Of a stretch of 64,000 bases of DNA, positions 11,314 to 45,212 are shown piece by piece. The notes under the pieces were generated by a model, which searched no databases, was not told the DNA's origin, and saw only the letters and a list, made by a program, of their open reading frames with translations. The stretch comes from an uncultured Candidatus Saccharibacteria bacterium. Lineage in GTDB: Bacteria; Patescibacteriota; Minisyncoccia; Phycocordibacterales; UBA12088. Both the position numbers and the translations under genes were made by a program. Within the stretch, counting starts at the first letter, position 1, and every line of letters begins with the position of its first letter. The stretch is from the NCBI GenBank assembly GCA_964411375.1, contig CAYPKR010000002.1, positions 129,960 to 193,959 of the forward strand. The letters run 5' to 3'.

Positions 11314-11316
11314 AAC

Positions 11317-12057: not shown

Positions 12058-12110
12058 CGATGCCTTTTGAGCATTTCGGATATGAGACAAAAGTGTCTTA
12101 TTTCTGAAAA

Positions 12111-12140
12111 GCTGACTGGAAGTTAGCTTAAACCTTACTT
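12111..12140. other. Hairpin (8-bp stem CTGGAAGT/ACTTCCAG) at the junction between the A+T-rich R-M operon and the GC-richer recombinase module
   Basis: ctggaagttagcttaaaccttacttccag. There is no clear T-tract. Confidence 0.3.
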
Positions 12141-12150
12141 CCAGTACAAA

Positions 12151-13210: not shown

Positions 13211-13420
13211 GTGAAAATCAAACCGGAAACGCTGGAGAAACTCCGCGCGATCCTGAAGCACGACTTCAGTCTTGAGGTAAGCGACCAAGACCTGCACGAC
13301 ATCGCCTTCAATCTGGTGCGGTACTACGACGCGCTATCGCGGTTTTACGTCGAGGACATCACGAGCGGCCGCACGCTCATCGAACCCTATGACACCCAAC
13401 CCAAGCGAACAAAAGCATAA
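13211..13420 (+). CDS. Hypothetical small protein (69 aa)
   Basis: ORF in the higher-GC recombinase module. It overlaps the next ORF by 32 nt in a different frame. Confidence 0.3.
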   Translation: MKIKPETLEKLRAILKHDFSLEVSDQDLHDIAFNLVRYYDALSRFYVEDITSGRTLIEPYDTQPKRTKA

Positions 13421-13961
13421 GGTCCGAGACTACCGCGAAGCGCCGTTTGCCTACCAAGACAAACCAGCCTTGCGCTTTATGCGCCAGGAATGGATCGACA
13501 AAAGAATAAGCGACGATGCATATCGCAACCTGCGCAACGTGTACTGTGCGCTTACCGAGATCGCATCGAATAAAGCGAGCCAAACCATCGAAGCGTCGAA
13601 TAAGACGATGCTTCTCTACTGTGGGCTCAAAGACTGGCGGACGATTAAGAAATGCTTGGACACGCTCGAAGTGTGGGCGTTTATCGCGATCACCAAAGTT
13701 CGCGGCGCGGATGCCAAGTTCAAGCCGCGAAGCATCACACTTCTTTCCGTCCTACATCTGGCGCAGGATGGTGGCCGATCTGCACGTGAAGCCATACGGC
13801 AAAGCACGCACACAGGCTGCGAGGCAGAAGATAAAGAAGCTAAGGGATTAAAAGAAATTAAAGAAAATTATAAAGAAACTAGCGGTGACTTCGAGAAAAT
13901 AAAGGAAATTCGGCAAATGAAGGCTCAATTACTGAAGAAAATGAGTATGCGAGGCAAATAA
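13389..13961 (+). CDS. Hypothetical protein (190 aa), cargo of the element
   Basis: Protein-like composition with a Lys/Glu-rich C-terminus. No recognisable motif. Confidence 0.4.
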   Translation: MTPNPSEQKHKVRDYREAPFAYQDKPALRFMRQEWIDKRISDDAYRNLRNVYCALTEIASNKASQTIEASNKTMLLYCGLKDWRTIKKCLDTLEVWAFIAITKVRGADAKFKPRSITLLSVLHLAQDGGRSAREAIRQSTHTGCEAEDKEAKGLKEIKENYKETSGDFEKIKEIRQMKAQLLKKMSMRGK

Positions 13962-14039
13962 TCATCTAACCAGAACCCACCAGTATTAACCGTTTTTCGG
14001 CAAGATTCGGCAGTAAACGGCAATGATTCGAGCAAAATA

Positions 14040-14070
14040 ATTACAGGATTCTACAGGAAATTACAGGGTT
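14040..14070. repeat. Three direct TACAGG repeats at 10-11 bp spacing upstream of the serine recombinase gene
   Basis: attacaggattctacaggaaattacagggtt. This is preceded by a near-repeat cggcaagattcg / cggcaatgattcg. Confidence 0.4.
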
Positions 14071-14175
14071 TTGAGGAAAAAGGAATGTGGGTAACTCAAG
14101 CTTAGCAGCTGCAAGAAAAGAGCATATGGTGTGTCTGGTACCGAACGTCGAATTCGAACCGCTTTTATCAACTAA

Positions 14176-15792
14176 ATGATTATGACTATGAATCAAGAAA
14201 ATCAACCCTTACGCGCCGTCGGCTACGCTCGCGTGTCGTCCAAGGATCAGGAAGACACCGGCTATTCGCTGCCGGCGCAAGAAAAGCTTCTGCGGGATTA
14301 TGCCGACCGGAATGGCTACGATCTGGTCAAAGTATTTGCCATTCAAGAATCGGCCGCGGGCAAGGTCCAGCGCAAGATATTTCACGAAATGATGGAGTAT
14401 GTGTCGAAAGCGAAAATCACTACGATCTTCGTCGAGACGACTGACCGCCTTACGCGCAACTTCGCCGATGTGCCGGTTATCGACGAGTGGATTCTTGCCG
14501 ACGAGAAGCACATGATCCATCTCGTCAAAGAAAGCTGCACGCTCCATAAAGACTCGAAATCTCACGAATGGTTTATGTGGCGCGTGAAAGTTGCTACAGC
14601 CGAGTACTACATCCGGCTCCTTTCCGAGAACGTGAAGAAAGGCCAGAAAGAAAAGCTGGCGCAAGGCTGGCTACCGACACGGCCGCCGCTTGGCTATAAA
14701 ACCATCGGCGAGAAAGGACATAAAATCCATGTGCTCGATGAGGACAAAGCGCCGATCGTCAAAAGAATGTTCGAACTGTATGCTACCAACATCAGCTCGA
14801 CCAAAAAGCTTGCCGATGAAATGTACCGGCTCGGTATGCGCTCGCGTGGAGGCAACAAGGTAAGCCACTCACGCGTGCACCAGCTCCTTGGCGATCCGTT
14901 CTATTACGGTATGAACCGCTGGAACGGCAAAGTCGCGCAAGGCAATCATGAGCCTCTGATCACCAAAGAATTATTTATGCGATGCCAAGACATCATGCAC
15001 AGCAACGGCACGCCAAAATACAACAAACACAATTCGCTTTTTAAGAACGTGTTTAAGTGCGAGGAATGCAAAGGCCGCGTAACATGGGAGATACAGAAAG
15101 GCCACTGGTACGGACACTGCAACCATTACAAGAATTGCACGCAGCGCGAATATGTCCGGCAAGAAACGGTCGATGAGCAAGTCATGGAAAATATCGAGCA
15201 GTTAAGCTCAAAGCATGACGAAGCCATCGAGCATATGCTCACCTGGGTCCAAGAAGCTCTCAAGGAAAGCCACAGCGAGGAAATAGAATTTAGGGAAAAG
15301 GCCACCGGCGAGCTTGAACGACGTTATCAAATGGCAACCCAGCGGCTCGACAAGATATATGACGATAAGATCGACGGCAAAATCAGCGAGGAGTTCTATC
15401 AGAAAAAGTATGCTCAATACAAGCTTGAGCAGGAAGAAGTGATGGATAGCCTCAATAAGCATAAGAATGCCAATCTCAAGTACTACGACATGGGCTCGAC
15501 GTTCTTGCAGATGGCCAAGGAGGCACGAAGGATTTACCTCAACCGAAGCACTATCGAGATGGTCGATGACAAGAAGCTCTTAATGTCTCTATTATTTTCG
15601 AACTCGACCATAAATAGCAAGAAAGTTGATATTTCATACCATAAAGCCTTCAAAATCATCTCCGATCGCGTGATGCAGATGTTGGGAGAAAAAATACCCA
15701 AAAATAAAACTTTCGAACCGCCAAAAAAGCCCGTCAATAAAGGAAAAACACCAGCTTTCGCTGATGTTAATCCTATCTGGCTCCGGCGGTAG
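14176..15792 (+). CDS. Large serine recombinase (resolvase catalytic domain + recombinase domain + zinc ribbon)
   Basis: N-terminal catalytic domain LRAVGYARVSSKDQ (catalytic Ser). A Cys-rich zinc beta-ribbon CEECKGRVTW...GHCNHYKNC is present. The protein is 538 aa. The last 5 codons are encoded by the 3' end of the tRNA-Asn gene. Confidence 0.9.
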   Translation: MIMTMNQENQPLRAVGYARVSSKDQEDTGYSLPAQEKLLRDYADRNGYDLVKVFAIQESAAGKVQRKIFHEMMEYVSKAKITTIFVETTDRLTRNFADVPVIDEWILADEKHMIHLVKESCTLHKDSKSHEWFMWRVKVATAEYYIRLLSENVKKGQKEKLAQGWLPTRPPLGYKTIGEKGHKIHVLDEDKAPIVKRMFELYATNISSTKKLADEMYRLGMRSRGGNKVSHSRVHQLLGDPFYYGMNRWNGKVAQGNHEPLITKELFMRCQDIMHSNGTPKYNKHNSLFKNVFKCEECKGRVTWEIQKGHWYGHCNHYKNCTQREYVRQETVDEQVMENIEQLSSKHDEAIEHMLTWVQEALKESHSEEIEFREKATGELERRYQMATQRLDKIYDDKIDGKISEEFYQKKYAQYKLEQEEVMDSLNKHKNANLKYYDMGSTFLQMAKEARRIYLNRSTIEMVDDKKLLMSLLFSNSTINSKKVDISYHKAFKIISDRVMQMLGEKIPKNKTFEPPKKPVNKGKTPAFADVNPIWLRR

Positions 15793-15852
15793 GATTCGAA
15801 CCTACAACCAACGCGTTAACAGCGCGCTGCTCTACCATTGAGCTACACCGGA
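15778..15852 (-). tRNA. tRNA-Asn (anticodon GTT)
   Basis: Minus-strand sequence: TCCGGTGTAGCTCAATGGTAGAGCAGCGCGCTGTTAACGCGTTGGTTGTAGGTTCGAATCCTACCGCCGGAGCCA. It has a cloverleaf with a 7-bp acceptor stem, GTT anticodon, GGTTCGAATCC T-arm and an encoded CCA. A TAGAAT -10 element lies about 10 nt upstream. Confidence 0.85.
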
Positions 15853-31093: not shown

Positions 31094-31714
31094 TTATTTA
31101 TTCTTTTTCCGTTCGCGTACGTAATGTACGAGTGGTGGAATAAATGAGACGATGATAATGACAAGGATAATTGGAAACAGAAATCGCTCTGCATCCGGAA
31201 CCTGTTTTCCTAATATGTATCCAAGATACGTGACTCCTCCGCCCCAAACAATCGCGCCGAGAACGTTGTAGGTAATAAAATCTCGATAGGGCATTTTTGC
31301 CGCGCCGGCAGCAATCGGAAGAAAAGTGCGGATGATAGGAAGAAATCTACCGAGCAAAATCGCTTGCTTTCCGTGCTTTTCAAAAAATGCTTCGGCTTTT
31401 TCCAAATGCGCTTTTTTAAAGATACGCGAATCGCTTTCTTTGAAGAGCTGACTCATATAGGTGCCGAAACCATATCCAATAATGTTGCCGAGAACTGCTG
31501 CCGAGATAATAAGTGGAATCAATATTCCTATTTGCAAAAATCCTTGTGAGGCAAGAAAGCCGGCAGTGAAAAGCAAACTATCTCCAGGGAAAAAGAATCC
31601 GAAAAAGAGTCCTGTTTCTGCGAACACAACAAAAAAGAGTCCGGAGTAGCCGGCGATATGAATGAGGTGCTCGGCATTGATGTGCGAGAGCGAATCGAAC
31701 AGGACTTCAATCAT
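31094..31714 (-). CDS. DedA-family membrane protein
   Basis: The ORF-track N-terminal extension is junk-like. The real start is MIEVLFDSL... at 31714, followed by DedA motifs (FFPGDSLLF, LGRFLPIIRTF). Confidence 0.7.
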   Translation of the reverse strand: MIEVLFDSLSHINAEHLIHIAGYSGLFFVVFAETGLFFGFFFPGDSLLFTAGFLASQGFLQIGILIPLIISAAVLGNIIGYGFGTYMSQLFKESDSRIFKKAHLEKAEAFFEKHGKQAILLGRFLPIIRTFLPIAAGAAKMPYRDFITYNVLGAIVWGGGVTYLGYILGKQVPDAERFLFPIILVIIIVSFIPPLVHYVRERKKNK

Positions 31715-31808
31715 AGTGGCAGTGTAGCATAGGCAAAACTGATTCGTATAAAAAGAGAAAGGGCCGTCAGTAAACTGACGGCCCTTGGTGCGCCGAAGCG
31801 CGGTAGAA

Positions 31809-32069
31809 CTAGTGAACAAGGCCTGCGTTGACACGATCGTTGCGGATCTTCCAGACCTTTTCCGGCTCGACGACCTGGCCCGTCTCGAGTCTCCATTTTC
31901 CTGGCTGACCGGGTGCAGGCGAAACCATGAAGGACTCGCCTGGTTGGGCGCCGTACAGAACGGCGTAGGGTGTGTACCCCTGGCGTTCTTGCCGTTCGTA
32001 CTGAGCCTGGAGCGCTCGCTCATGCCAGGTCATGAGCCAGCGAACAACTGCGTAGAACCATGTGACCAT
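31809..32069 (-). CDS. Hypothetical small protein (86 aa)
   Basis: Strong SD (AAGGGAGA) 7 nt upstream of the ATG, and protein-like composition. GC-rich, lying between the GT2 gene and dedA. Confidence 0.45.
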   Translation of the reverse strand: MVTWFYAVVRWLMTWHERALQAQYERQERQGYTPYAVLYGAQPGESFMVSPAPGQPGKWRLETGQVVEPEKVWKIRNDRVNAGLVH

Positions 32070-32127
32070 TACTGGTCTCCCTTAGAGAAGACGTCTGCCA
32101 AATATGATGGCATTTTTTGACATAATG

Positions 32128-33468
32128 TCAAGAGCTGACGGGGCGATCTTCGTAGACTACCCAAGCGGTTTTCTTCGCCGTGTTAGTACCTCCAGCATCC
32201 GCACGCGAACCTCCCCACTTCCCAACTAGATGTTGAGTGAGGAGAGCCCAGAAGCAGATAAACTGGAAGAGCAGCATTACGAACGGGAAGATCGGGAGTA
32301 CCCACAAACTTCTCGGATATTTCCAGAGATGTGGGAACTGTCGGACAATTGTGGTCAGAATCATACCGAATACAGCGAGTATAAGCGCTTGCCACAGCGG
32401 CGTGCCCCCGTGACCAAGTAAATACGTGAGCGGCCAGTGCACGGCAACAATATATACCGTAGAGAGCGTGACCAAAATGCTTGTCCAGTACACGAAGAAT
32501 GCGACCGGGAAACGGATAAGCCATGGCGACCGTATCGTAATCCCCTGAAAGGTCCGGCACCACCGCGCCCACATACCGCAGGTATCGACAAGATTGTCGG
32601 GTGCAGTGGTCGTAACACACGCGTCCCAAACAAGAACAGTCCGGTACCCTGCTTGGAGTACAAATCCAGTGATCCGCCGATCGTCGCCTGCAATAGCGGG
32701 TCGGCGCATCAGACCAAAGTAGCTGAACGAGTCATTGACGAGCTCATCCATACGATGCTCGACGAGCTTCGTACGGACTGCATACATTCGTCCCGGTAGG
32801 CACGCGACCTGACCGAAGAGACTGCATGCTGCCATTGATGAGTTGAGCCTGGCGTCTTCGAGCCAGAAGCTAATTTTCTGGATCCAGGTCTTCGGATCGT
32901 GTACGAGCTGCGAAGTTGTTGTCCCTCCAATACGAGGGTCGGAGAACGGCGCGAGAAGTTTGAGTACGACATCCTTATTTCTCGGAATGGTATCCGAGTC
33001 AAGAAAGATGAGCAGCTCCTCGAGCCTTCCGCGCTTGCGTGCTTCCCGAAGAAGCTCCCGCAAGTTCCATTTCTTGTGACGAGCATTCGTAACGAGAACG
33101 ACATTTGCGTATCTTTTCGCAATCTCGGTCTCGAGCGCCACTTTAGCTGGATTCTTATCGAAGCCATCGATGATGGCAATGAAGAAGTGCCGGGTTGTTC
33201 CGTATTCGAGTGACTCTTTTACCTTTCGGAGAGACTCCTCAAGGATTTTAAGATTCTCGTCGTAGATCGTGACAACAATCGTTACTGCCTTTTTATCCAG
33301 AGGGTATTTTTGAATCCACCCCCTACTCCACAAAAAGTAGAAAATACCCGCAAGAGCCATGAGAGGAAATTGTCGAGCCGAAACGAACATGACGTAGATC
33401 TCGAACACATACCATCGGCCTGTATGGATTGTGTCCAAGAGTTGAGACACGAAGTGGATCATTGCCAC
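32128..33468 (-). CDS. Processive family-2 glycosyltransferase (hyaluronan/chitin/cellulose-synthase-like)
   Basis: 446 aa. A GT-A domain with DSD is followed by GDDRRITGF (G(D/E)DR.LT-type motif), a WARW (Q..RW-like) motif and C-terminal TM helices. Confidence 0.75.
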   Translation of the reverse strand: MAMIHFVSQLLDTIHTGRWYVFEIYVMFVSARQFPLMALAGIFYFLWSRGWIQKYPLDKKAVTIVVTIYDENLKILEESLRKVKESLEYGTTRHFFIAIIDGFDKNPAKVALETEIAKRYANVVLVTNARHKKWNLRELLREARKRGRLEELLIFLDSDTIPRNKDVVLKLLAPFSDPRIGGTTTSQLVHDPKTWIQKISFWLEDARLNSSMAACSLFGQVACLPGRMYAVRTKLVEHRMDELVNDSFSYFGLMRRPAIAGDDRRITGFVLQAGYRTVLVWDACVTTTAPDNLVDTCGMWARWCRTFQGITIRSPWLIRFPVAFFVYWTSILVTLSTVYIVAVHWPLTYLLGHGGTPLWQALILAVFGMILTTIVRQFPHLWKYPRSLWVLPIFPFVMLLFQFICFWALLTQHLVGKWGGSRADAGGTNTAKKTAWVVYEDRPVSS

Positions 33469-33535
33469 TTTCTCCTTTTCTTAAGGGTTTAGCAGGCCGG
33501 AGGATCCGGCCTGCCGTCTTGGATTCCAAGAGGAC

Positions 33536-35035
33536 TTATTGTCCCCAGTAGCCTCCCCAGTTGAAGCGGAGACCGGTATTGATGCTTTCATCCCTACCGT
33601 TTGAATATCGGTCGGGACCATCGATGTACTGGGTAACCCTGCCGCCCACGAAGGCACAAGAATTGCCGAATGCTGCGAAACCGGGTTTACCGAGGCAGTA
33701 GGTCAATTCAACTCCCACTGCGCCGTCGTTGTCCCAATATCGCTCGGGATTCGTCGAGAGAGAGCCCTGGACGTAGAAGTCCAGACCCACGGTGTCAGTG
33801 TCGGTAAGCCACATGAGACTCATGTTGATCCCCTGCGAAAGACGCAAGAAACCAACCGTTTCCTTTTGCCCATACGGCTTTCCGGTGACACCACTTATTT
33901 CGTTATTCGACGTGTCGCCAAACGTTCCGCTGATGTTTCCGGAAATCGTCCACGGGTAGCTGAATGTTCCCCGCGGCATGCCGCTTGCACCGAAGGTTGC
34001 GATCTCCGCCACCGGCTCGGGTGTTTGAAGCCCGTACGATGCACGGAAATCGTCGATCAGTTTGCGGAACGCATCCCACTCATTTTCGGGAATGCCCCAG
34101 AAGATCGGCTTGTCGTTGGTTGCCTTTCCCGTTGGAACATTTTCGAAGAAGAAGTTGACGTTCGTGACATGCGTGAATCGAGTCTTGAGAGACTCGAGCA
34201 TGTCGCGGAACCAGTCGATCTTGTCAACGCCGCAGAGATTGGTCGTCGAGACTTCCGCCACCCAGATCGGGAGATCAGTAATCTTTACGATTGCATCATA
34301 TGCGGGACCAAATTCATCCGCGAAACTTTTCGGTTGCATGTGCGACGGATCGAGGCCGCACCGGTTGTAGGTCGAGATCGAGACCGATGTCACGAACTCG
34401 TCACCAGGATAGAGCGACTGAAAATCACTCGTTCCCTTGCCGCGTGCGCTTGATCGATTGTAGTTGAGGTCGACGCCGACGATTTTGCCGCTGGCAGACT
34501 CTCGAAGCAGCGTTACCATATGCTGCCATGCCGCGATGAAATCCTCCGGATGATTGCCCGGATAATACACGCCGCATGAATACCAATCGCCGTTGAACTC
34601 ATTACACGGACGAACAGTGATGTCTTGGTCCAGATCTTTGACCGCCTGGCCGAACGTGCGGAACGCATCGTCAAAGCCGCCGTCTTTGATTTTGGCGAGA
34701 ACACCATCCTCGACCGGAAATTTTATGACAACGATTTTTTTCGTCGCTGGATTGAACTTTCCGTACGGCAGTGCATTGACCGAGCCGGCGGTGTAGTACA
34801 CCACCACACAGTCATTGATGCCGAGCGGGTTCGCGATCGAGTAGTACTGCGCCGCACCTTGTGCAGACGCGAGGCAAAACTTGATGTCGCGTGTCGGTGC
34901 CGTTTGAGTAACTGCCGCTTGCGAAGCTGCCACATTCGGCAACGACGTGGTTGCTTGGGGAGAGATTTTCTCCGCTCCTGCACAAGCACTCACGAGGAGC
35001 ACCAGTGCTAGTCCTATTATTCTGTAAAGGTGCAT
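33536..35035 (-). CDS. GH26-like glycoside hydrolase lipoprotein with an extra Gly/aromatic-rich C-terminal domain
   Basis: Lipobox LLVSAC. RPCNEFNG (R...E.N acid/base context) and WVAEVST (nucleophile Glu context). A C-terminal segment of about 190 aa ends in ...FNWGGYWGQ. A perfect 10-bp-stem hairpin lies downstream (33488-33510). Confidence 0.55.
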   Translation of the reverse strand: MHLYRIIGLALVLLVSACAGAEKISPQATTSLPNVAASQAAVTQTAPTRDIKFCLASAQGAAQYYSIANPLGINDCVVVYYTAGSVNALPYGKFNPATKKIVVIKFPVEDGVLAKIKDGGFDDAFRTFGQAVKDLDQDITVRPCNEFNGDWYSCGVYYPGNHPEDFIAAWQHMVTLLRESASGKIVGVDLNYNRSSARGKGTSDFQSLYPGDEFVTSVSISTYNRCGLDPSHMQPKSFADEFGPAYDAIVKITDLPIWVAEVSTTNLCGVDKIDWFRDMLESLKTRFTHVTNVNFFFENVPTGKATNDKPIFWGIPENEWDAFRKLIDDFRASYGLQTPEPVAEIATFGASGMPRGTFSYPWTISGNISGTFGDTSNNEISGVTGKPYGQKETVGFLRLSQGINMSLMWLTDTDTVGLDFYVQGSLSTNPERYWDNDGAVGVELTYCLGKPGFAAFGNSCAFVGGRVTQYIDGPDRYSNGRDESINTGLRFNWGGYWGQ

Positions 35036-35194
35036 TGTCTTCTCCCGAGGCCAAAGGCCCAGCTGGGGTGAAAACGAAAAGGCCTGGAGACTCCAGTCCT
35101 TTGCCTTTCAGAATATCCCTTAAATTAAGAGTTTTGTCAAGATACAATATCGGTATTTTTTGTTGTGAAATATGGCAATTTTGGCCTCTGTCTC

Positions 35195-35228
35195 GAAAAG
35201 AAATAGAGCGTCTGGGGGACGCTCTATA
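35195..35228 (-). terminator. Intrinsic terminator downstream of the second GH26-like gene
   Basis: 9-bp stem TAGAGCGTC/GACGCTCTA with loop TGGGG, followed on the minus strand by TTTCTTTTCG. Confidence 0.6.
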
Positions 35229-35267
35229 GAGTATGATTGAATTGACTGCCTTTTCTTTATGAGACCC

Positions 35268-36377
35268 TTACTCGCATTTTACAAGGATGTTTTTGTTCGG
35301 GTCTTTATAAGTCGCGTTCAGTTCGGCGCGAAATTCGTTGTTGATTTTGCAGAACCCCGCTACCCGATCGCCGTAAATTCCCCAATCGATCGGCACATCA
35401 TTCGACGCTCCGCCGATTTTCACCTTTTCAAGAAAGATGGTGAGTTGATCGACTCTCGGGAATCGCTCCTCGATGTCCCGAAACATGCCCCGGAACCATT
35501 CGATCCGATCGATTGCGCACTTAGGAGGATCAGTGAGCGCACTCGTATTCGTCTCCCCTACCCCGATTGGAATTCGAGGATCAATCGAGGCAGCGACTGC
35601 CTCGTATGCGGCGCCAAACTGCGTTTCAAATGATGGTGCTGTAACATACCGTTCGGCCGTGCCGCAGCGATTATACGCATCAATCGTCACCCGATCGACG
35701 ATTGCGTTGCCCGGATAGAGCTCAGCAAAATCTTTTTCGATCGCTCCCTTCGGTCCATAACGATTGACCGAAAAATCGAATGCGGCCAGATCGCCTGCAG
35801 CCACTTTCAGAATATTCGCTACATGGAGCCATGCCGCGGTATAGTCCTTCGGATTGTTGCCGGGATAATATGCTTGCCACGGATATCCATTACCATTCGC
35901 CTCGTACATATGACGTATGGTGACGCCGCGGCCATCGTCGACAATCATTTTTCCAATAGCAGATAAATCTGCATCGAATCTGCCGCCAAGGATTTCTTTC
36001 AGAACTCCGGGGCATTTAATTTTGTCAACCGGCATCTCACCATGAGGTCCCGCACCGCAACCTTTCATTGGGAAGAATTTGAGCGCCAGGATGATGTTGG
36101 TTTGACGCGGATATGCGGTGAAATCTCCGGTCTCGATCTTCCCTACCGTTGGATACAAGAGCGCGTGCTCATAGGCGCCGAGAGGGAGCGCACGTTTGTA
36201 GAAATACTCCGCATCGCGGGGAGATGAAGTGCCGATACTGATCGGACGCGGCACTGTGGCACCTACATTTTTGGGATGTAGTGCAGGCACGCTGTCGAGT
36301 TTTGACCCAAGAGAGGGCAGACACGCTGTCAGAATTCCGAAAATACCTACGAAAAGCAGTTTTCTGGTAAGGTGCAT
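35268..36377 (-). CDS. GH26-like glycoside hydrolase lipoprotein (paralog of 33536..35035)
   Basis: Start MHLTRKLLFVGIFGILTAC (lipobox) with an AAAGGA SD. IRHMYEANGNGYPW and PIGVGETNTS motifs. Shares DWFR/EWFR and YPGN.P.D..AAW blocks with its paralog. Confidence 0.55.
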   Translation of the reverse strand: MHLTRKLLFVGIFGILTACLPSLGSKLDSVPALHPKNVGATVPRPISIGTSSPRDAEYFYKRALPLGAYEHALLYPTVGKIETGDFTAYPRQTNIILALKFFPMKGCGAGPHGEMPVDKIKCPGVLKEILGGRFDADLSAIGKMIVDDGRGVTIRHMYEANGNGYPWQAYYPGNNPKDYTAAWLHVANILKVAAGDLAAFDFSVNRYGPKGAIEKDFAELYPGNAIVDRVTIDAYNRCGTAERYVTAPSFETQFGAAYEAVAASIDPRIPIGVGETNTSALTDPPKCAIDRIEWFRGMFRDIEERFPRVDQLTIFLEKVKIGGASNDVPIDWGIYGDRVAGFCKINNEFRAELNATYKDPNKNILVKCE

Positions 36378-36482
36378 TTCATTCCTTTCTGGGCACAAAG
36401 CCCGAGAGGAGAAAAGCGGCATAAGCGCAGCTTTTATCTCAGCGAAATATCCCTTTAATTTTGTGCGTTGTCAATACTCCTA

Positions 36483-39400
36483 TTATTCTGCAGGAGTAGT
36501 GCTTGCTTCTGGAGCCGGATCTGGTTCTTCGGCTGAAGGTGTTGAAGTTGAAGTGGTAGTCGTCACATCCGGAGTAACAGATTCAGTAGTCGTAGCTTCT
36601 TTTGGTGCAGGTTCATGTATCGGAGCTGATGCTCCCCCGATATTTGCATTTCGAAGCAGTGTTTCAAGCTTTTCTTTAGTCAAGCAAACTCCGTCAACAC
36701 AAATCTGCTTTCCTGCTGATACTTCATCGTCTGCTTCAATTTTTTTCGCATGCAAATTATCAACGACGATTGTTTTTGCCAATACCGTATCGAATGTGGC
36801 TTTCAAAGTATCGCCGACTGCCGATACGCCCGAACCAATGAGTGAAGTGATTTGTTCTTGTTGATGTTTGAACGCGCCAAGAAGTACGACTGCGAGATCT
36901 TCGTAACGAACACCGCGCGGCGCGCCATCCTCTTCGCGGAAAATTAATCTTCCATCAACCGCCCCAACTTCTTCTGCAACCAATCCGATGCGATCTTCTT
37001 CGGTGCCGTTGTATTTGAAATGAACGGGACGAAGTTTTTCGGCAAGCGTTGCTGCTTCTTCGGGCGTGAAATCTTGAATGTCATGTTTGAACCTCGCCGA
37101 TGAGACGGTACAGGTTTGTGCACCAGAGTTTACCTGCACTTCTTTGTCAGAAGACAAACAAAGCGCGCTACCGCTCGTTGATTCTGCCGTAAGCCCATCA
37201 AATCCAACCGTTCCGGTGACTGAAAGAAAACGCCATGGACTGGTAGATGCGATGCCGAATTTTCCGCCAGAAGTGAGCGCGGCTTTTGATGTTTGGTTGG
37301 TAATGAAGCGAAGATCGTGATTGGTCATCGTTCCTACAAACGCTTGTGTATCTTCAACGCGCATATCGATAACGGCGCCATTCGTAGTATCCGTAAATCG
37401 AAATCCTGGGCTGTTTGCACTCGCGCCGTTAATCATGCGGTTCATAGTGGTCGTGCCGATTCCAATACTTCCGGTTGAATCAATCGTCAAAATATCTCCA
37501 ACCGACTGACTATACGTCGATTTGATTCTGAAATAATCTGCGGTCTGACTTGTTGCGCCAGTTACGGTGAGCACTGATGCTGCGGCATCAGTGCCGACCA
37601 CCTGGAGTTTTGATGTTGGTGTCGTGGTTCCAACCCCAACATTCCCTGCTGTGTATACGAGACTTGAAGAAGTTGCAATCCATTTATCATTGAAGATTGA
37701 ATCCGCGACAATGTTGTAGCCGGTCTTCATGAGCGTATCTTCGGCGATAATGAAGCGATCGTTATTGCCGCCATTCGAATACGGCTGATCGACGCCCCAC
37801 AACTGACCGTTCACTGACACATAGGTCGCTTTTTCAACTCGAATACCAACCGATGGCGCGGGTGTTCCGGTTCCATCATCGTCAACGCCGGGAATTTCAG
37901 AAAGATTAGTGATCACAACCGGCGCGACTTTTGCAGTTGGCGAGCCAATGATTGCGATTCCGGCATACGGCGTTTCTGTGCCGCCGCCGTCGTTCGCACC
38001 ATCGCGGCGAAGCAAAAGTCCGTCAAACGTAATAGTAGTCGTTCCTGTTGCCGAAATGCGTACGCCGTGACGATCGTTTCGGTCGGTTGAAAAACCGCTA
38101 ATTTGGAATCCGCCGTTGCTTGATGAGCCGTCAATGTAGAGTCCTTCGAGTGTATTGAATACTGCGCGGCTGTTTGAGAGCTTCGTTTCTCCCATCGACG
38201 TGAAATAAAATCCGCGCTGTGCGCCGCCGACAACCAGAATGTCGTTCAGATATGAGTCAGTGAGCGCGGTCGCGCGAACGCCGTGGAGTGCCGGACTATA
38301 AATACTCAAGTGATCGACCGTAAATCCGCGTGGATTCCCCGTTCCCGCGCCTTGCGCAGTATGGAACGCATCTCCTGAGGTTTGCGAGATATCAGTATCT
38401 TCAACCTTCCAGTCACGGACCAATCCTTCAAAATAAATCCCGTCGATTGCCGTGCCATATGAGTTACCGTCGATTGAAATATTCCGAATGCGTCCGCCGT
38501 CGTTTGACGCTGCTTCTCCTGAAATGCTTTTATCGCGCACATGAATGATTGCGGATCCGACGAAACTGGTTGTCGGCTTGATGGAACTCCTCGGCGTTGA
38601 TGCATAGTACCAACGCGGCGCGTAGGTTCCCTGAAGCGTGATTGGTTTATCGAGATTGAGTGGCTGGCTGATTCGGAACACGCCCATCGGAAAGAGAACG
38701 GTTCCTCCAGGAGAACATGCATTGATCGCCGCCGTGATCGCTGCATAATTGTCGCGTGAATTATCACCGACGGCGCCATATGCTTCGACGTTGCAGACAA
38801 CGCCACCGGTATCCAGAAAAAGACCGGTTGTTGTGCCAAACGAGGCATATTTAAGTACGCTCAAATTATGTTCAATCGTTGTTGTTCCTGAACTTCCACC
38901 AAAGAGTGCCGTCCCCGCAACAGAGAGAATTGCACTCGGCGTTGTTGTACCAATACCAACTTTTCCAGTCAGTCGATATACATCCGAACCACTTCCCGTC
39001 CAATTTCCCGAAGCTCCTGAACTTAGGATTGATCCATTCCAATACAAATCAGAATTGTTGTTATACAAACGATTAGATGTTTGCGAAGGTGTGCCGGAAA
39101 GAAGAAGTAATGAACTTGCGAACGTCGTTTCACCGTTCATTGTTGCAGATTCCAAAATATTATCTTCGTTTGCTGGGATAAATGCCGTGACCACCCCACC
39201 ACGAACCGCGGAGAGAATATTTGCAACAAATGATTTTGTTTCTTCGATTTTTTTATCTACGAGAGATTCGGAAACCCCTTCAGTATAAATATTATTTATG
39301 ACCGACGCTGGAGTTTTTTCGGTCGGAACGTACACCGTGACGGTTTTTGTTGGTGTCGGTACGGAAGTAGATTCCGTCGGCGGATTGTTTGCGACCGGTG

Positions 39401-39662
39401 TATTGATAGGTGCGGCTGGAGGAGAATTTGTTTCAGTGACTGGCGGAGTATTTTGCGGCGAAGATACTTCCGACGTTGGAGTCGGGGTTTCGACTTTTGG
39501 CGCACAAAATCCTAAAGGCTTTAAAACAAATCCAAACACATAACACATGAAGCCAGGTGAAGAATCCTTTGCAGCTACTGGATGCGGAAAAAGAAATAGC
39601 GTAAGTACCAGACACACGGCTGCAACAGACAAAAGTCCAGGACTATGTGGCCCCTTATTCAT
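36483..39662 (-). CDS. Large secreted beta-helix protein with C-terminal intramolecular-chaperone (peptidase S74) domain; tailspike/depolymerase-like
   Basis: Signal peptide and a Pro/Thr-rich linker. Pectate-lyase-like right-handed beta-helix repeats. SSARFKHDIQDFTPEEAATLAEKLRPVHFKY matches the S74 autoproteolytic chaperone motif. A Thr/Pro-rich tail of about 150 aa follows. Confidence 0.75.
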   Translation of the reverse strand: MNKGPHSPGLLSVAAVCLVLTLFLFPHPVAAKDSSPGFMCYVFGFVLKPLGFCAPKVETPTPTSEVSSPQNTPPVTETNSPPAAPINTPVANNPPTESTSVPTPTKTVTVYVPTEKTPASVINNIYTEGVSESLVDKKIEETKSFVANILSAVRGGVVTAFIPANEDNILESATMNGETTFASSLLLLSGTPSQTSNRLYNNNSDLYWNGSILSSGASGNWTGSGSDVYRLTGKVGIGTTTPSAILSVAGTALFGGSSGTTTIEHNLSVLKYASFGTTTGLFLDTGGVVCNVEAYGAVGDNSRDNYAAITAAINACSPGGTVLFPMGVFRISQPLNLDKPITLQGTYAPRWYYASTPRSSIKPTTSFVGSAIIHVRDKSISGEAASNDGGRIRNISIDGNSYGTAIDGIYFEGLVRDWKVEDTDISQTSGDAFHTAQGAGTGNPRGFTVDHLSIYSPALHGVRATALTDSYLNDILVVGGAQRGFYFTSMGETKLSNSRAVFNTLEGLYIDGSSSNGGFQISGFSTDRNDRHGVRISATGTTTITFDGLLLRRDGANDGGGTETPYAGIAIIGSPTAKVAPVVITNLSEIPGVDDDGTGTPAPSVGIRVEKATYVSVNGQLWGVDQPYSNGGNNDRFIIAEDTLMKTGYNIVADSIFNDKWIATSSSLVYTAGNVGVGTTTPTSKLQVVGTDAAASVLTVTGATSQTADYFRIKSTYSQSVGDILTIDSTGSIGIGTTTMNRMINGASANSPGFRFTDTTNGAVIDMRVEDTQAFVGTMTNHDLRFITNQTSKAALTSGGKFGIASTSPWRFLSVTGTVGFDGLTAESTSGSALCLSSDKEVQVNSGAQTCTVSSARFKHDIQDFTPEEAATLAEKLRPVHFKYNGTEEDRIGLVAEEVGAVDGRLIFREEDGAPRGVRYEDLAVVLLGAFKHQQEQITSLIGSGVSAVGDTLKATFDTVLAKTIVVDNLHAKKIEADDEVSAGKQICVDGVCLTKEKLETLLRNANIGGASAPIHEPAPKEATTTESVTPDVTTTTSTSTPSAEEPDPAPEASTTPAE

Positions 39663-40145: not shown

Positions 40146-42053
40146 TTACGAGAGTTCTTTAAGGAGATCAGTGAGTTTGATCGTTGCAACACCTACCACT
40201 GAATCGCCGCCGCCATAATATACGTACACAACTCCTTTTCGGATGATTGCGCCGCACGGGAAAACCACATGCGGAATTTGTCCTTCATGTTCGTATTGTT
40301 CAGTTGGCTCAAACAAGGGAGAAACGGTGCGAGAAAGGACGGTTGTCGGATCTTTGAGATCAAGGAGCACCGCACCAACACGATACGTCTTATTTTTTGA
40401 AACGCCGTGATAGAGAAGAATCCATCCGTCTTTAGTTTTGAGCGGTGGCGCAGCAATACCCACTTTCTGACTGTCCCACATGCCAGGGCGAGGGGCGAGA
40501 AGCTGGATGCAACGAGATGCTTTATCGATTTCAAAATTAAGCGAATCAAGAAAGTCTGCGCACACATGTGTTCCAAGGCGATGGAGAATCATATACTTCC
40601 CTTTTACTTTTTCGGGAAGTAAACAGGTGTCTTTGTCGTCGAGTCCAGTTGGGGTGACGATAACCGGCTTTGACCAATTTTGCCATTGTTGTTTTTCAAA
40701 ATCGGCCACTGAAATTGAGGTCGCGGCAACAACTGGCGGACGAACACCATCGTACGCGGTGTAACACATATATATACGATCTCCGATTTGCGTGAGCCGC
40801 GGGTCCTCACATCCTGAATTTCCATTAGGATCTCCCTTTTTCATTTCAAAATCTTCGCGCGGAACATATATCGGATCGGTGCCACGTGTCTTGATCGAGA
40901 GTCCATCTTTCGATGCGGCATAACCAATGGTTGAAGTATTATCTTCAGACATTGCGCGATATAGAATGTGCACCACTCCACCAAGATCAATTGCGGCAGG
41001 ATTAAATACCGCACGGGACTCCCATCCGTGACTCCGTATCGGACGAAGTATCGGATTTTTTGGATACCGCTTCATATTTTTGAAGCGTGTTTTCAAATTG
41101 AGATTTGCAATGAGGCTCGAAAGATTTACGGTTGCTCTTGCACACGTCGTGTCGGTTGCACCGTAATAAATATCGAGATCATTTCGATTTACCAAGGCAC
41201 CAGATGGAAAAATAGTATTCGGCACTTGTCCGTATTTTTCATAGACTTCTTCAGGAACAAGAAGCGGTCCCGGAGTGCGTCCGATTATTTTTTGTGGATT
41301 TTTCAGATCAAGAAGAAGCGCTTCAATTCCCCAGACTTTTTCGTTCGAGAAATAATTTTGGGCATGCGAATAAATAAGGAGCCAACCTTGCTTAGTTTTG
41401 ATCGGCGGTACACCAACTTCCGCATGATCACCATCACCTCGGCGTGGATCGATGATATGTTTTCCTTCCGTTTTTTCCCACTCTCTCCAAAACTCCGGCG
41501 ACCAGAAGTCTTCGATCTTTTTAGCTGATGCGAATGCGATTTTGGAGGGCGGCCTATCAGTATCTTTTGCAAAAATCACCATATACTTGCCGTCCACTTT
41601 TTCAGGGAAAAGCGCCATCGCCTTTGCATTAAACGGCGTCACCAAATGTTTTTCGGTGACTTTTTTCAAATCCTTGGTTATTGCAACTGCTACTTTAATA
41701 TTGTCTGGTCCATACGGAAAACCACCAAGCGCCGTATAAAAAATATAATAGGTGTCGCCAATCTTCGTGACGCGAGGATCTTCACAACCAAAACGCTCCC
41801 ATGGCTGTTCGGGAATAATGAATTGCTCGCGATGATCAAAATGTTTGCCGTCATCCGATACCGCATGTCCAATAGTGGAAAGGGCCAAATGCACTCCTTC
41901 GTATTGATCTGATGCAGACATTGCGCGATAAAACGCATGGATCTTTTTTCCAACCTTAACTGGTGACCAATTAAATGTCGCGAGCGCTTCCCACGGATGT
42001 TCTCCGAGCGGCCGGATCAAAGGATTGTGCGAATCTCGTTTAATGATAAACAT
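40146..42053 (-). CDS. Tandem GH130-family glycoside phosphorylase/hydrolase (two GH130 beta-propeller domains)
   Basis: 635 aa. Two copies of the GH130 pattern (.FNP....G..H..YRA.......IG.A.S.DG..F; GCEDPR.T.IGD.YY..YTA). Confidence 0.8.
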   Translation of the reverse strand: MFIIKRDSHNPLIRPLGEHPWEALATFNWSPVKVGKKIHAFYRAMSASDQYEGVHLALSTIGHAVSDDGKHFDHREQFIIPEQPWERFGCEDPRVTKIGDTYYIFYTALGGFPYGPDNIKVAVAITKDLKKVTEKHLVTPFNAKAMALFPEKVDGKYMVIFAKDTDRPPSKIAFASAKKIEDFWSPEFWREWEKTEGKHIIDPRRGDGDHAEVGVPPIKTKQGWLLIYSHAQNYFSNEKVWGIEALLLDLKNPQKIIGRTPGPLLVPEEVYEKYGQVPNTIFPSGALVNRNDLDIYYGATDTTCARATVNLSSLIANLNLKTRFKNMKRYPKNPILRPIRSHGWESRAVFNPAAIDLGGVVHILYRAMSEDNTSTIGYAASKDGLSIKTRGTDPIYVPREDFEMKKGDPNGNSGCEDPRLTQIGDRIYMCYTAYDGVRPPVVAATSISVADFEKQQWQNWSKPVIVTPTGLDDKDTCLLPEKVKGKYMILHRLGTHVCADFLDSLNFEIDKASRCIQLLAPRPGMWDSQKVGIAAPPLKTKDGWILLYHGVSKNKTYRVGAVLLDLKDPTTVLSRTVSPLFEPTEQYEHEGQIPHVVFPCGAIIRKGVVYVYYGGGDSVVGVATIKLTDLLKELS

Positions 42054-42054
42054 A

Positions 42055-43878
42055 CTATTTTCTGACGGTTACTTTTTCAGGATGTAAGTGCACCACGCTA
42101 TCTTTCTTTACATTGTCGATAAATTCATCAAGTGGCGTATGCGCGACACACGTCACCATATCCGCTCCTCCATAATATATGTAGAGTTGATTTTTGATAA
42201 CGGCAGCACCGCATGGATAAATGACGCCCCATTTGTGTCCCTGATTTTCGTATTCCGCGTCTGGAACGGCGATCGGGAGACGCGCACGGTACAAGACTTT
42301 TGTTGGATCATTTGAATCCAAAATCATCGCACCCATTTTGTAGCGTCCCGGATCACGATCATCAACACCCTGATACACCACGAGCCATCCTGCTTCAGTT
42401 TTGAGAGGTGGCGGACCGACACCAAGTTTTCTACTGTCCCAAAAACTTGGGCGTGGTTTTATTTTTGCGTCCCCTCGAAGCCAACGCTGTTTTTTGAATT
42501 CAAGATCTGGGACAAAATCGATGAGCATGTTCGGAAAAATGCGATGAAAAATAACATACTTGCCGTTTACTTTTTCTGGAAAAAGTGCTGCGTTCTTATT
42601 CACTTGATCAGGGCGTGAAATGAGAAGTGGCTTCTTCCACTTCCAGTTCCCCGCCTTAAAATTATCGAAAGAAATTGACGTAATGGCGACGCGCGGCGCA
42701 GACCATCCGTCATAGGCAACGTAAGTCATGTAGACGGTGTCATCAATCAAAGTGATTCGAGGATCTTCACAACCACCCCATCCGCCACCACCCGACGTAA
42801 ATTCATCGTTACCTTCGTATGGCAAGCCATGCACCATTTCGGTCGGCGTGCGAGATGAATAAATGGGATGAGTTAATCGTTCAGAAAAATTGAGCCCGTC
42901 GTCCGACGTTGCATAGCCAACAGACGACATATTGTTCCAACCGATTGCGCGATACAAAAGATGTACTTTTTCACCGTCAAAAAGTGCCGCGGGATTGAAT
43001 GTTGCGACTGATTCCCAATGACTCGGCTTTGGCGAAAGTACTGGATTCACGTGATGCGCTTTCGTGAGTCCGGAAATACCGATACTCATATGACCATGGA
43101 AAGGTTGCGGAATTTTTACCGTATGCAGTTCCTTATTTTGATCGAGCCAGTAGAGGCGAATTTCTTCACCAAGTCCGATCGCTCCAAACGGCGTTGCCAC
43201 TCCCGCAAACTCTTCTTCGAAGACGAGCGATTCACCGCTCCAGGCAATCTCTGCCGGATTATCATGACGGAATAAAAATCCTTCGATGCGAAGTAGGGTG
43301 CCGGAAGCAGTTGCTTTTGAACGATCAACAAGAAGCAAAATGCCCGCGTGCGTATTCACCGCTCCCCACAAACGACCAGATGGAATCCCGAGTTTTGATT
43401 TGCTCCATTTACGAAGGTCTTTGCTGTAGGCAACATACATCTCACTCCCACCAAGATAGAGCACATGTTTGTCTTTAAATCTGAATCCATCAACCCATGC
43501 GATATCAGGATTTCCCGACATAATTTTTCCCTTGCCGCGACTCGAAACAAGCGTCTTTGAGATAGCGCCAACAGTGCTAATTGTTTTTCCTTTTCGTCTC
43601 GAGTAGATAAGAAATTCTCCTTCGTCTACCGGATATGCCGAAGCGCGCACGATCATGTCGACCGCTTCTGTCGATCCACGCTCGGTGAGCATCTTCAGTT
43701 TTTTCCGCGGACGATCAAAACGTACCCCGTCATTACTTTTTTGTATGAAAATTTCCGGCTCGCCTTTTGCGTTTACCTCACGGTATACAAGAAAAAGACT
43801 TCGTCCATGAAAACCGACACCCAGGGGTTCGTGTCCTGTTTCACCTTTTTTTTGCCGCTTTCCCCTGCCTATTGGCAT
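42055..43878 (-). CDS. GH130-family protein with an N-terminal beta-propeller-like extension
   Basis: C-terminal half: TFNPAALFDGEKVHLLYRAIG...GGCEDPRITLIDDTVYMTYVAYDG. Confidence 0.75.
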   Translation of the reverse strand: MPIGRGKRQKKGETGHEPLGVGFHGRSLFLVYREVNAKGEPEIFIQKSNDGVRFDRPRKKLKMLTERGSTEAVDMIVRASAYPVDEGEFLIYSRRKGKTISTVGAISKTLVSSRGKGKIMSGNPDIAWVDGFRFKDKHVLYLGGSEMYVAYSKDLRKWSKSKLGIPSGRLWGAVNTHAGILLLVDRSKATASGTLLRIEGFLFRHDNPAEIAWSGESLVFEEEFAGVATPFGAIGLGEEIRLYWLDQNKELHTVKIPQPFHGHMSIGISGLTKAHHVNPVLSPKPSHWESVATFNPAALFDGEKVHLLYRAIGWNNMSSVGYATSDDGLNFSERLTHPIYSSRTPTEMVHGLPYEGNDEFTSGGGGWGGCEDPRITLIDDTVYMTYVAYDGWSAPRVAITSISFDNFKAGNWKWKKPLLISRPDQVNKNAALFPEKVNGKYVIFHRIFPNMLIDFVPDLEFKKQRWLRGDAKIKPRPSFWDSRKLGVGPPPLKTEAGWLVVYQGVDDRDPGRYKMGAMILDSNDPTKVLYRARLPIAVPDAEYENQGHKWGVIYPCGAAVIKNQLYIYYGGADMVTCVAHTPLDEFIDNVKKDSVVHLHPEKVTVRK

Positions 43879-43891
43879 ACTTCTTTCAAAA

Positions 43892-44260
43892 TTACCTCTT
43901 CTTCACCTTTGTCGGAGCTCTGCCGTATTTATCGGCAAGACGCGTGATGTCATTTTCATCAAACGCACCAAATGCGATTTCCAAAAATGCCGCTCCGTCT
44001 TTTCCCGCTTTAATTCGATGTTGTTTTTTCTTCGGAATCAAAAATTCGTCTCCCGCTCGTGCACGTGTCACCTTCTCGCCAATCGTCACTGTTGGATGTC
44101 CCGAAATGATCCGCCAAAATTCGCTTCGATCGTTATGATATTGCAGTGACAACTCACCGCCCGGCGCTATGGTAATTATTTTTACTGTCGATTGTTCGTT
44201 TGCCGTAAATTGGCGAAAAGCGCCCCACGGACGCTTCACTTCTTTGATGCGCATATTCAA
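43892..44260 (-). CDS. Cupin-domain protein (mannose-6-phosphate isomerase-type cupin_2)
   Basis: TIAPGGELSLQYHNDRSEFWRIISG is a cupin motif. Confidence 0.7.
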   Translation of the reverse strand: MNMRIKEVKRPWGAFRQFTANEQSTVKIITIAPGGELSLQYHNDRSEFWRIISGHPTVTIGEKVTRARAGDEFLIPKKKQHRIKAGKDGAAFLEIAFGAFDENDITRLADKYGRAPTKVKKR

Positions 44261-44284
44261 ATTATAGCACTCTTCTCGGAGTAA

Positions 44285-45040
44285 TTAGGCAACCTCACCT
44301 GTGAGTATTCGCCGAATCAAATCTCTCGTTTCAGCGGGGCTCCGAACGGCTACTGTTTTGATGCCCGTTTTAAGAACTGCCGCATCGTTTCCCCCTTCAA
44401 AGAGTGCGTCACCGATATACTCCGCGTCCCAAACGGTGTATCCGAGCTGATCCAGGATTTTTTGGAGCCCGTAGGCTTTATCAATGCCCGCCTTGGTTAT
44501 ATCGATGGTCGTCGTACCGCCGATGTGCACTTCAAAATTTGGAAGTCGTTCGCGTAATTCTTCCTGAATCGGAATACGCTTCCTTCGGTCGGGATCCCAT
44601 TTCTCTTTTTCAAAGAGTGGAGCCTCTTGTCCAAGTGCCGAAAAAGTTATCTGCGTTCCACGATCTTCGATTTGTTCACCATAAATTTGAAGCGGCTGTT
44701 CAAACTTTGCCGCAATCAGAGATTCTTTAATTGCCTGAATTGCAGATTCCTTCTCTTCACTTGAAAGTGTTTCTTCGTAGATTTTTTCTGGATCGACATT
44801 TGCGTAGTGATAGAGTGCTGCTCCGCTCGTTGGAAGAAGATAGAGATTTTGTCGCTCATGATCTCCGCATGGTAAATGCATAATAAGTCGATCGTGGAGT
44901 TGCCCCATTGAGGCGCCACTCATCACGGCAACTTTTGTCTTCGCAAGCAATTGGCACACAAGCGAGGCAGTTTCTTCTTCGATTGGAAATCTGGATGGTG
45001 CAAGCGTTCCATCAAGGTCAAAAACGTACAATTTCTTCAT
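44285..45040 (-). CDS. HAD-IIB family phosphatase/mutase (phosphomannomutase- or mannosyl-phosphate-phosphatase-like)
   Basis: Start MKKLYVFDLDGTLAPS (DxDGT motif I). The size and the distal Asp motif are consistent with HAD-IIB. The ORF-track N-terminal extension was trimmed. Confidence 0.7.
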   Translation of the reverse strand: MKKLYVFDLDGTLAPSRFPIEEETASLVCQLLAKTKVAVMSGASMGQLHDRLIMHLPCGDHERQNLYLLPTSGAALYHYANVDPEKIYEETLSSEEKESAIQAIKESLIAAKFEQPLQIYGEQIEDRGTQITFSALGQEAPLFEKEKWDPDRRKRIPIQEELRERLPNFEVHIGGTTTIDITKAGIDKAYGLQKILDQLGYTVWDAEYIGDALFEGGNDAAVLKTGIKTVAVRSPAETRDLIRRILTGEVA

Positions 45041-45212
45041 GATAGAAATCAGTATATCACTTACTGAGGAGGGTTCAGGGCGGGTGGACAAATGCATCCT
45101 TCTGTGCTATACATACCGCATCAAAACGATAGGTCTTGCAACGGGAAAATAGGTTGAATTTTCTTCGGAGGACGCGATGTTTTGAAGAATTTATTCAATT
45201 TATCTTGCCGAA

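Follow-up and report, generated by a model that had tools for sequence, protein, structure and literature searches.

We describe a cluster of polysaccharide genes in a 64-kb stretch of DNA from an uncultured Candidatus Saccharibacteria bacterium, which probably encodes a synthase-dependent exopolysaccharide system. The system would consist of a synthase-translocase of the hyaluronan synthase (HAS) type, a membrane-tethered GH26 endoglycanase acting on the product of the synthase, and a co-regulated paralogue of this glycanase. The window is the whole 64-kb stretch, with coordinates counted from its first letter, and the examined region (31740-36422) spans from the gene GH26A to the terminator past a small open reading frame (ORF). 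From upstream to downstream on the minus strand, the gene order is two GH130 genes, a beta-helix/S74 protein gene, GH26A, GH26B, a membrane glycosyltransferase family 2 gene (GT2), an 86-aa ORF and DedA. Folds, motifs, catalytic residues, gene linkage and the conservation of promoters and leaders were observed directly in the analysis.

From here we infer enzyme activity, topology, the action of the glycanase on the synthase's own product and the function of the promoters. In the proposed mechanism the promoter P_B would drive an operon of GH26B, GT2 and the small membrane protein. GT2 would polymerise nucleotide-sugars at the cytoplasmic face and pass the beta-linked polymer, as it lengthens, through a transmembrane channel of its own. 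GH26B would act as a lipid-anchored retaining endo-beta-glycanase on the outside of the membrane, equipped with a family-specific C-terminal beta-domain, and would cut, trim or release the GT2 polymer as BcsZ, PslG or WssD do elsewhere. GH26A would be an older, lineage-specific duplicate that lacks the C-terminal domain and is separately transcribed. The two units are predicted to be co-regulated because the same promoter-plus-leader module stands before both paralogues in four genomes.

The synthase gene (32128..33468, minus strand) encodes 446 aa when read from GTG 33468; ATG 33462 (444 aa) is the likelier start. In Pfam, GT2 matched GT2 families including GT2_3 and, weakly, Chitin_synth_2, and the protein has three to four C-terminal transmembrane helices. 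The motifs DSDT (residues 157-160), CLPGR (223-227), GDDR(RIT) (261-267) and MWARW (299-303) are present, as is a gating loop, W418-GGS-R422. Across 27 homologues, D157, S158, D159, G261, D262, D263, R264, R302 and W303 are invariant; W418 and R422 are also invariant among homologues. The motifs described for HAS are DxDT, GDDR, QxxRW and a WGT(S)GR gating loop (PMC11750622). A profile of the GT2 clade (21 members) matched Chlorella virus HAS (CvHAS) from residues 22-438 to residues 46-477 with an E-value of 1.6e-29, and it matched Xenopus HAS1 (XlHAS1) too. When the AlphaFold2 model of GT2 (pLDDT 88.8, pTM 0.88) was compared with the PDB using Foldseek, the 13 best matches were all class I HAS (CvHAS and XlHAS1; TMq 0.56-0.70), followed by an archaeal mannosyltransferase, chitin synthases and BcsA. 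A first-pass annotation of this DNA had proposed a processive enzyme of the HAS/chitin synthase type, and the full-length CvHAS profile match together with the structural matches supports that proposal. The DSD and GDDRRIT motifs it listed are both present, at 157-160 and 261-267, whereas its WARW hallmark holds only for the RW (R302, W303) of QxxRW, since the Q has been lost clade-wide.

In predicted fold and motifs, GT2 is thus class I HAS-like. The likeness to CvHAS and XlHAS1 (PDB 7sp7, 8snc, 8smm) comprises a full-length profile and fold match at similar size, a GT-A domain, interface helices and C-terminal transmembrane helices in both, and the presence in GT2 of DxDT, GDDR and the R-W of QxxRW, together with a gating loop of the form W-G-x-x-R. 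On the other hand, GT2 is only 15-19% identical to the solved structures, and its clade has MWxRW, no recognisable GLYG and hosts from the candidate phyla radiation (CPR). At the Q position of QxxRW (M299), M or T is found in the homologues P0002-P0021 and V in P0022, which yields MWxRW; the distant homologues P0023-P0029 retain QQxRW, with the RW of which R302 and W303 of GT2 align. The clade consensus of the gating loop is WGTRxG, with the T changed to G in the window copy (W418-G-G-S-R422). A GLYG motif was not recognisable in the GT2 region aligned to CvHAS residues 46-60, a site placed by reading the alignment. We know of no HAS gene that comes with a GH26 partner. A UDP-glucose dehydrogenase (hasB-like) was not recognised among the window ORFs scanned against Pfam, the window comprising 64 kb only. 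GT2, a hyaluronan-synthase-like enzyme, probably makes and exports a surface sugar polymer.

A different reading of the same protein is that GT2 is NodC-like, of the chitin-oligosaccharide type or non-processive, and builds short lipid- or protein-linked glycans, with the GH26 proteins remodelling a cell-wall glycan. NodC and the chitin synthases belong to the same GT2 clan; GDDR and a CLPG motif like that of chitin synthases also occur in GT2, which with 446 aa is of NodC size, and the weak Chitin_synth_2 matches and the lost Q of QxxRW point the same way. The best NCBIfam match of GT2 is indeed the NodC model TIGR04242, however with 72.4 bits against an equivalog cut-off of 550, and an assignment as NodC was rejected because the score lies so far under this cut-off. 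Moreover, it is HAS that GT2 matches over the full length, transmembrane channel region and gating loop included, the chitin synthases are weaker structural matches than HAS, and R302, W303, W418 and R422 are invariant. We consider a NodC-like role quite unlikely.

The two putative partner enzymes are paralogous lipoproteins. GH26B (33536..35035, minus strand) has 499 aa and the lipobox LVSAC, and GH26A has 369 aa and the lipobox ILTAC. The GH26A ORF covers 35268..36422 on the minus strand, but its start is almost certainly ATG 36377 (giving 35268..36377), as the sequence MHLTRK... aligns there with the start MHLYR of the paralogue; the upstream ATG is disfavoured since it falls within a conserved leader hairpin. 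The two proteins are 32% identical over 371 aa (E 3e-58). Their signal peptides, ...LLVSAC18 in GH26B and ...GILTAC19 in GH26A, fit the lipobox [LVI][ASTVI][GAS]C, so that both are predicted lipoproteins, and lipobox-type xxAC or xxGC also occurs in the close homologues P0030-P0032.

The catalytic contexts are NE146FNG and AE261V in GH26B and YE159ANG and GE275T in GH26A. The putative catalytic (beta/alpha)8 domain of GH26B covers approximately residues 46-345 (minus strand), with E146 as acid/base and E261 as nucleophile; in GH26A the putative acid/base is E159 (codon 35901-35903, minus strand) and the putative nucleophile E275. A phmmer search against the PDB matched the GH26 domain of CtLic26A at E 2e-20 for GH26B and 9e-12 for GH26A. 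E146 and E261 align with E109 and E222 of the CtLic26A chain and are invariant in the alignment; E159 and E275 are invariant in the orthologues of GH26A. Both lipoproteins have the (beta/alpha)8 barrel of clan GH-A, and the catalytic glutamates follow strands 4 and 7, with strand positions taken from the structure model. In the GH26 family the acid/base glutamate comes after strand 4 and the nucleophile glutamate lies on strand 7 (PMC10470212). Homologues of the window lipoproteins carry PF02156. GH26A consists of the GH26 catalytic domain only, plus a paralogue-specific, Cys-containing loop insertion. The two proteins are divergent members of GH26, and annotation pipelines may overlook them. 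The earlier description of two paralogous lipoproteins with GH26-like catalytic contexts agrees with these results, given 32% identity, a lipobox in both and both glutamate sites kept in each.

CtLic26A, the GH26 lichenase domain of Clostridium thermocellum CelH (PDB 2bv9, 2cip, 2v3g), is the best match of both lipoproteins in sequence and in structure. The identity is about 25%; the window proteins differ in being lipoproteins, GH26B with an extra beta-domain, and CtLic26A is a cellulosomal catabolic enzyme, unlike the role proposed here. The extra part of GH26B is a C-terminal domain (residues ~357-495; window 33551-33967, minus strand) that is all-beta, about 140 aa long and without a Pfam match, and in which two Cys are conserved. 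When 1.84 billion representative proteins were searched exhaustively, it turned up in 14 only, in all of which it comes after a GH26-like domain of about 350 aa.

Linkage between the two gene families supports a system of a synthase and its dedicated glycanase. A GH26-like gene lies directly upstream of the GT2 clade gene, on the same strand, in 11/12 loci with informative upstream sequence, and in several of these the upstream gene also bears the C-terminal domain. The 11 linked loci span Saccharibacteria, Parcubacteria and Thiofilum, including unrelated genomic contexts. Members of the GT2 clade come mostly from Saccharibacteria, Parcubacteria and Paceibacteria, but also from Thiofilum flexile (57% identity) and a metagenome-assembled Victivallales genome. 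A locus identical to that of the window is present in SRR12487045. The GH26-GT2 pair is also found in non-CPR Gram-negative contexts, for example beside a TonB-dependent receptor in locus L006. Identity to the window GT2 is 52-58% in L006, L007 and L010 (Thiofilum flexile) and so exceeds that of some CPR copies (35-46%), which implies that the GH26-GT2 cassette moved between phyla. The GH26 partner has been duplicated repeatedly, with two copies in the window, three in L009 (labelled Candidatus Saccharibacteria) and, in L007, two GH26 domains joined in one protein of 982 aa. A GH130 gene stands beside the pair only in the closest relatives, and DedA is likewise not conserved with it; the pattern ties the glycanase to the synthase and not to the mannoside-phosphorylase genes.

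Systems in which a synthase has a hydrolase of its own are known. BcsA/BcsZ, PslG, WssD, PgaC/PgaB and Streptomyces CslA/CslZ all place a processive membrane GT2 beside an extracytoplasmic hydrolase presumed to act on the product, and BcsA and PslG are more distant structural matches to the window proteins. The organisation seen here differs from these pairs in that the hydrolases are GH26 and not GH8, GH39 or GH6, and in that the hydrolase precedes the synthase and has a private C-terminal domain. With Pfam, no PilZ domain was found on GT2 and no GH8 match for either hydrolase; a BcsB-like gene was not recognisable in the locus, and BcsA is a weaker fold match to GT2 than HAS. The bcsA/bcsZ-type logic suggested in the first-pass annotation is backed by the linkage in 11/12 loci across several phyla. 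Its placing of dedicated hydrolases in the synthase operon applies to GH26B, whereas GH26A forms its own transcription unit.

The linkage data also bear on a catabolic explanation, in which the GH26 lipoproteins serve nutrition or attack on a host: as endo-mannanases or endo-glucanases on the surface they would supply oligosaccharides to the GH130 phosphorylases and a phosphomannomutase (PMM)-like enzyme, with GT2 as a mere neighbour. CPR bacteria rely on sugars from outside, which would suit such a role. Two GH130 genes (E 1e-102 and 7e-51) and a PMM/HAD gene do lie directly upstream, within 40146-45097; the GH130 genes occupy 42055-43878 and 40146-42053 on the minus strand. Most characterised GH26 enzymes are beta-mannanases (PMC13390465). 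The catabolic explanation, however, fits the linkage, fold and synteny data less well than an exopolysaccharide system does, and we regard it as unlikely. As to these neighbours themselves, the GH130 genes are adjacent and encode unusually long proteins (635 and 607 aa), the one of 635 aa with two GH130-like halves. The gene next to them is of the PMM/HAD type, phosphomannomutase-like, and the group, which is restricted to the closest relatives, resembles a beta-mannoside phosphorolysis route.

Returning to the exopolysaccharide system, the regulatory sequences of the two glycanase genes are alike. The predicted promoters P_A of GH26A (36446..36474, minus strand; conserved core AATTAAAGGGATATT) and P_B of the GH26B-GT2-small ORF operon (35112..35140, minus strand; core AATTTAAGGGATATT) both read TTGACA-N17-GATATT. 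This pattern has exactly two matches in 64 kb, those before GH26A and GH26B, with 0.05 expected. In four genomes, those of the window, L002, L003 and L009, each of the paralogues is preceded by a 15-nt core, AATTWAAGGGATATT, from which the GH26A copies of L003 and L009 deviate at one or two positions. Judged from this consensus, P_A and P_B are likely to act as promoters. The shared upstream element of the first-pass annotation is therefore real, with its two matches in 64 kb, but its spacing is TTGACA-N17-GATATT and not N18-ATATTC. That annotation had also concluded that the promoter was duplicated with the gene. Duplication may have created the promoter module, but selection must be maintaining it, since four genomes have kept the core while identity between the proteins is down to about 32%; selection, and not duplication alone, is reflected in the identical promoters. 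A scan of metagenome contigs for TTGACA-N8-AWWTWAARGSATATT as a sign of a wider regulon gave 78 matches, none beside homologues of the locus proteins, and these look like chance AT-rich promoter-like sites.

Each promoter is followed by a structured 5' leader with two stem-loops (SL1 and SL2), located at 36391..36435 for GH26A (SL1 36412-36435, SL2 36391-36403) and at 35048..35102 for GH26B (SL1 35077-35102, SL2 35048-35060), both on the minus strand. SL1, in which a GC stem stands between an A-tract and a U-tract, resembles a terminator, and SL2 lies just ahead of the Shine-Dalgarno sequence. Hairpin sequences vary between genomes while the pairing is preserved: in eight aligned leaders 90% of cells were paired and 8/13 pairs showed compensatory changes, a result reached by 0/500 shuffles. 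When both leaders and the whole window were searched against Rfam at a permissive E-value, no family was found except one tRNA. Stabilisation of the 5' end, attenuation and termination of read-through are candidate roles of the leaders.

Two terminators, which like the small ORF had gone unmentioned in the first-pass annotation, delimit the transcription units. After GH26A, an intrinsic-terminator-like hairpin (35203..35227, minus strand) consists of a 10-bp stem followed by TTCTTTTC, and L002 and L003 have a comparable hairpin at the equivalent site. A strong intrinsic terminator (31759..31786, minus strand) with a 12-bp stem of which 8 are GC pairs, followed by TCTCTTTTTA, closes the operon of GH26B, GT2 and the small ORF. 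Because of these terminators, two transcription units are predicted, P_A-GH26A and P_B-GH26B-GT2-small ORF. The 67-bp spacer between GH26B and GT2 holds a GC-rich 10-bp hairpin without a U-tract (33492-33514, GCAGGCCGGA-TCC-TCCGGCCTGC), which may act in mRNA processing or stability and so determine how much GH26B is made relative to GT2. Beyond the last terminator lies the DedA-family gene, a conserved protein of 206 aa with its start at 31714 (31094-31714, minus strand); the 309-aa DedA ORF (31094-32023) is over-extended across the terminator and small-ORF region.

The last gene of the operon is the small ORF (31809..32069, minus strand; 86 aa), which has its own Shine-Dalgarno sequence and no Pfam match. 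Its relatives are single-pass membrane proteins of 95-96 aa; it is kept at the equivalent position in L002, L003 and L004, more weakly in L008, and in L001 a gene is called. The window copy has a shorter hydrophobic segment at its N terminus, and no match to L002 was detectable at E 1e-3. The window GT2 stands out as well, being only 63% identical to that of the sister genome L002, while the other genes common to both are 72-94% identical, except one poorly conserved 148-aa ORF; the L002 GT2 is nearer to the outgroup L003 (68%) than to the window copy. Altogether, the low identities of GT2 and the unmatched small ORF suggest allelic replacement or accelerated divergence of these two genes in the window lineage, with a breakpoint between GH26B and GT2. 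The window GT2 deviates at 9/95 highly conserved columns, which is high and yet within the range of the clade, and dN/dS values were all far below 1, with dS saturated. An interpretation of GT2 as a pseudogene or as a gene under relaxed selection was rejected on these grounds.

Base composition sets the region apart from the rest of the window. GC content is 52.2% in 31740-36422 compared to 45.6% in the remaining window, and the region has the top GC content among all sliding windows of equal size (mean 45.9%, standard deviation 2.6%), in line with the initial remark that the segment is GC-richer than its neighbours. GC at third codon positions is 0.58 in GT2, 0.63 in GH26B, 0.53 in GH26A and 0.68 in the small ORF, compared with approximately 0.40-0.47 in most neighbours. 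In the relative L003, with 58% GC, the cassette genes are slightly GC-poorer than their flanks. The composition of the cassette is therefore one that stays intermediate while the surrounding genomes differ.

The raised GC and GC3 could also mean that the block is a recently acquired foreign island or a prophage remnant, with genes that have no integrated host role. A tailspike-like neighbour, the outlier position of the window GT2 relative to the sister genome and the Thiofilum member of the GT2 clade, which at 57% identity is closer than some CPR copies (35-46%), would fit such an origin. That neighbour (36483..39662, minus strand; 1059 aa, signal-anchored; Pfam PF12708 and PF13884) has a pectate-lyase-type beta-helix with repeated G-x-G-I-G-T-T-x-P segments and a C-terminal Peptidase_S74 intramolecular (auto-)chaperone domain. 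It is built like a phage tailspike or tail fibre and matches the tail protein phrog_11699 at E 1e-42. An S74 protein is found upstream of the GH26-GT2 pair in L001-L003, L008, L009 and L013-L016; it occurs in most CPR loci and is confined to them.

The block with the same flanks (GH130, DedA, DsbB, UDG) is, however, syntenic in L002, L003 and L009, in which proteins are 50-94% identical, and this conserved synteny argues against a recent insertion. The GC excess is, from the sequence comparison, no mark of one. None of the genes is disrupted, and dN is much lower than dS. Near the GC-rich block there are no other phage genes, no integrase and no flanking repeats, the last of which the first-pass annotation had wanted checked as a sign of horizontal transfer. 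In PHROGs no matches were obtained for GT2, GH26A or GH26B. Viral contigs held no close relative of the GT2 clade or the GH26 family, the best matches having 26% and 37% identity, so that a phage-borne cassette is not supported either. We consider a foreign island very unlikely, and the polysaccharide cassette is best placed in an ordinary chromosome: the window encodes RpoC, DnaG, RpoD, HisRS, TruB and BacA.

Elsewhere in the window, a low-GC stretch (~5950-15850; 36-41% GC at 6-12 kb) encodes a KAP-family NTPase and an N6-adenine methylase with a TaqI-like specificity domain, and reaches a large serine recombinase abutting tRNA-Asn (15778-15852). This stretch is probably an integrated mobile or defence island. 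At 1226-4206 the window encodes a haem-copper quinol or cytochrome oxidase subunit I and a subunit II-like gene (COX1, COX_ARM); the closest relatives of the genome that bears these oxidase genes carry the Saccharibacteria label.

Several observations weigh against the exopolysaccharide system. The Q of QxxRW is replaced (MWxRW) and GLYG is not recognisable, so catalysis may differ from that of HAS; window GT2 and small ORF are unusually divergent, and this copy could be functionally altered. With Pfam GH26, both lipoproteins stayed under threshold, GH26B at 15.1 versus 20.2 bits and GH26A with no match. GH26 enzymes are classically catabolic, and the nearby GH130 pair and PMM-like gene could mean nutrient acquisition. 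Finally, the GT2 of L011 (Victivallales) had no GH26 gene within 8 kb upstream.

What the polymer is can be approached from both enzymes. The three nearest characterised GH26 enzymes all cleave polymers containing beta-1,3 bonds. HAS-type and Cps3S-type synthases make alternating beta-1,3/beta-1,4 chains. Because the GH26 partners are lichenase-like and the alternating linkages are typical of HAS/Cps3S-type synthases, we tentatively suggest a gluco-configured glycan with beta-1,3 and beta-1,4 linkages, a possible but doubtful assignment. Among known GT2 synthases, the bacterial mixed-linkage beta-glucan synthases S. meliloti BgsA and Romboutsia RiGT2 offer a parallel, as a beta-1,3/1,4 product would fit a lichenase-like partner (PMC10374906). 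The excerpted account describes both as BcsA/CrdS-like with a PilZ domain or c-di-GMP binding, states that RiGT2 is not clustered with a bcsB gene, and in that excerpt mentions no partner hydrolase (PMC10374906). The window GT2 differs from both in being HAS-like without PilZ.

A more far-reaching model, to which we attach little probability, would see in the GH26-GT2 pair a previously undescribed, horizontally mobile polysaccharide machine, accompanied in its CPR copies by a tailspike-like trimeric beta-helix protein. The glycanase would then be an obligate extracytoplasmic subunit whose C-terminal beta-domain docks on the synthase in a BcsB-like manner, and the product would be a new beta-1,3/1,4-type surface or sheath polymer common to episymbiotic Saccharibacteria, Parcubacteria and filamentous bacteria such as Thiofilum. 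In the literature on the Thiothrix sheath we found nothing that ties the sheath polysaccharide to these genes.

No prior description of the cassette was found in full-text literature on Saccharibacteria or CPR bacteria with hyaluronan synthase or GH26. Distinctive features are the HAS-like clade with MWxRW, the GH26 enzyme with its private domain, the frequent tailspike-like neighbour and the occurrence in CPR and a few other bacteria. The matched promoter-plus-leader modules show in compact form how selection keeps the cis-regulation of long-separated paralogues identical. CPR bacteria such as Saccharibacteria have tiny genomes and live attached to other cells, and for this reason a conserved, co-regulated make-and-cut surface polysaccharide system is a good candidate for a role in attachment or in building a sheath or matrix. 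Identification of the polymer would extend the short list of synthase-dependent bacterial exopolysaccharides and would offer one of the few ways into the function of the CPR cell surface.

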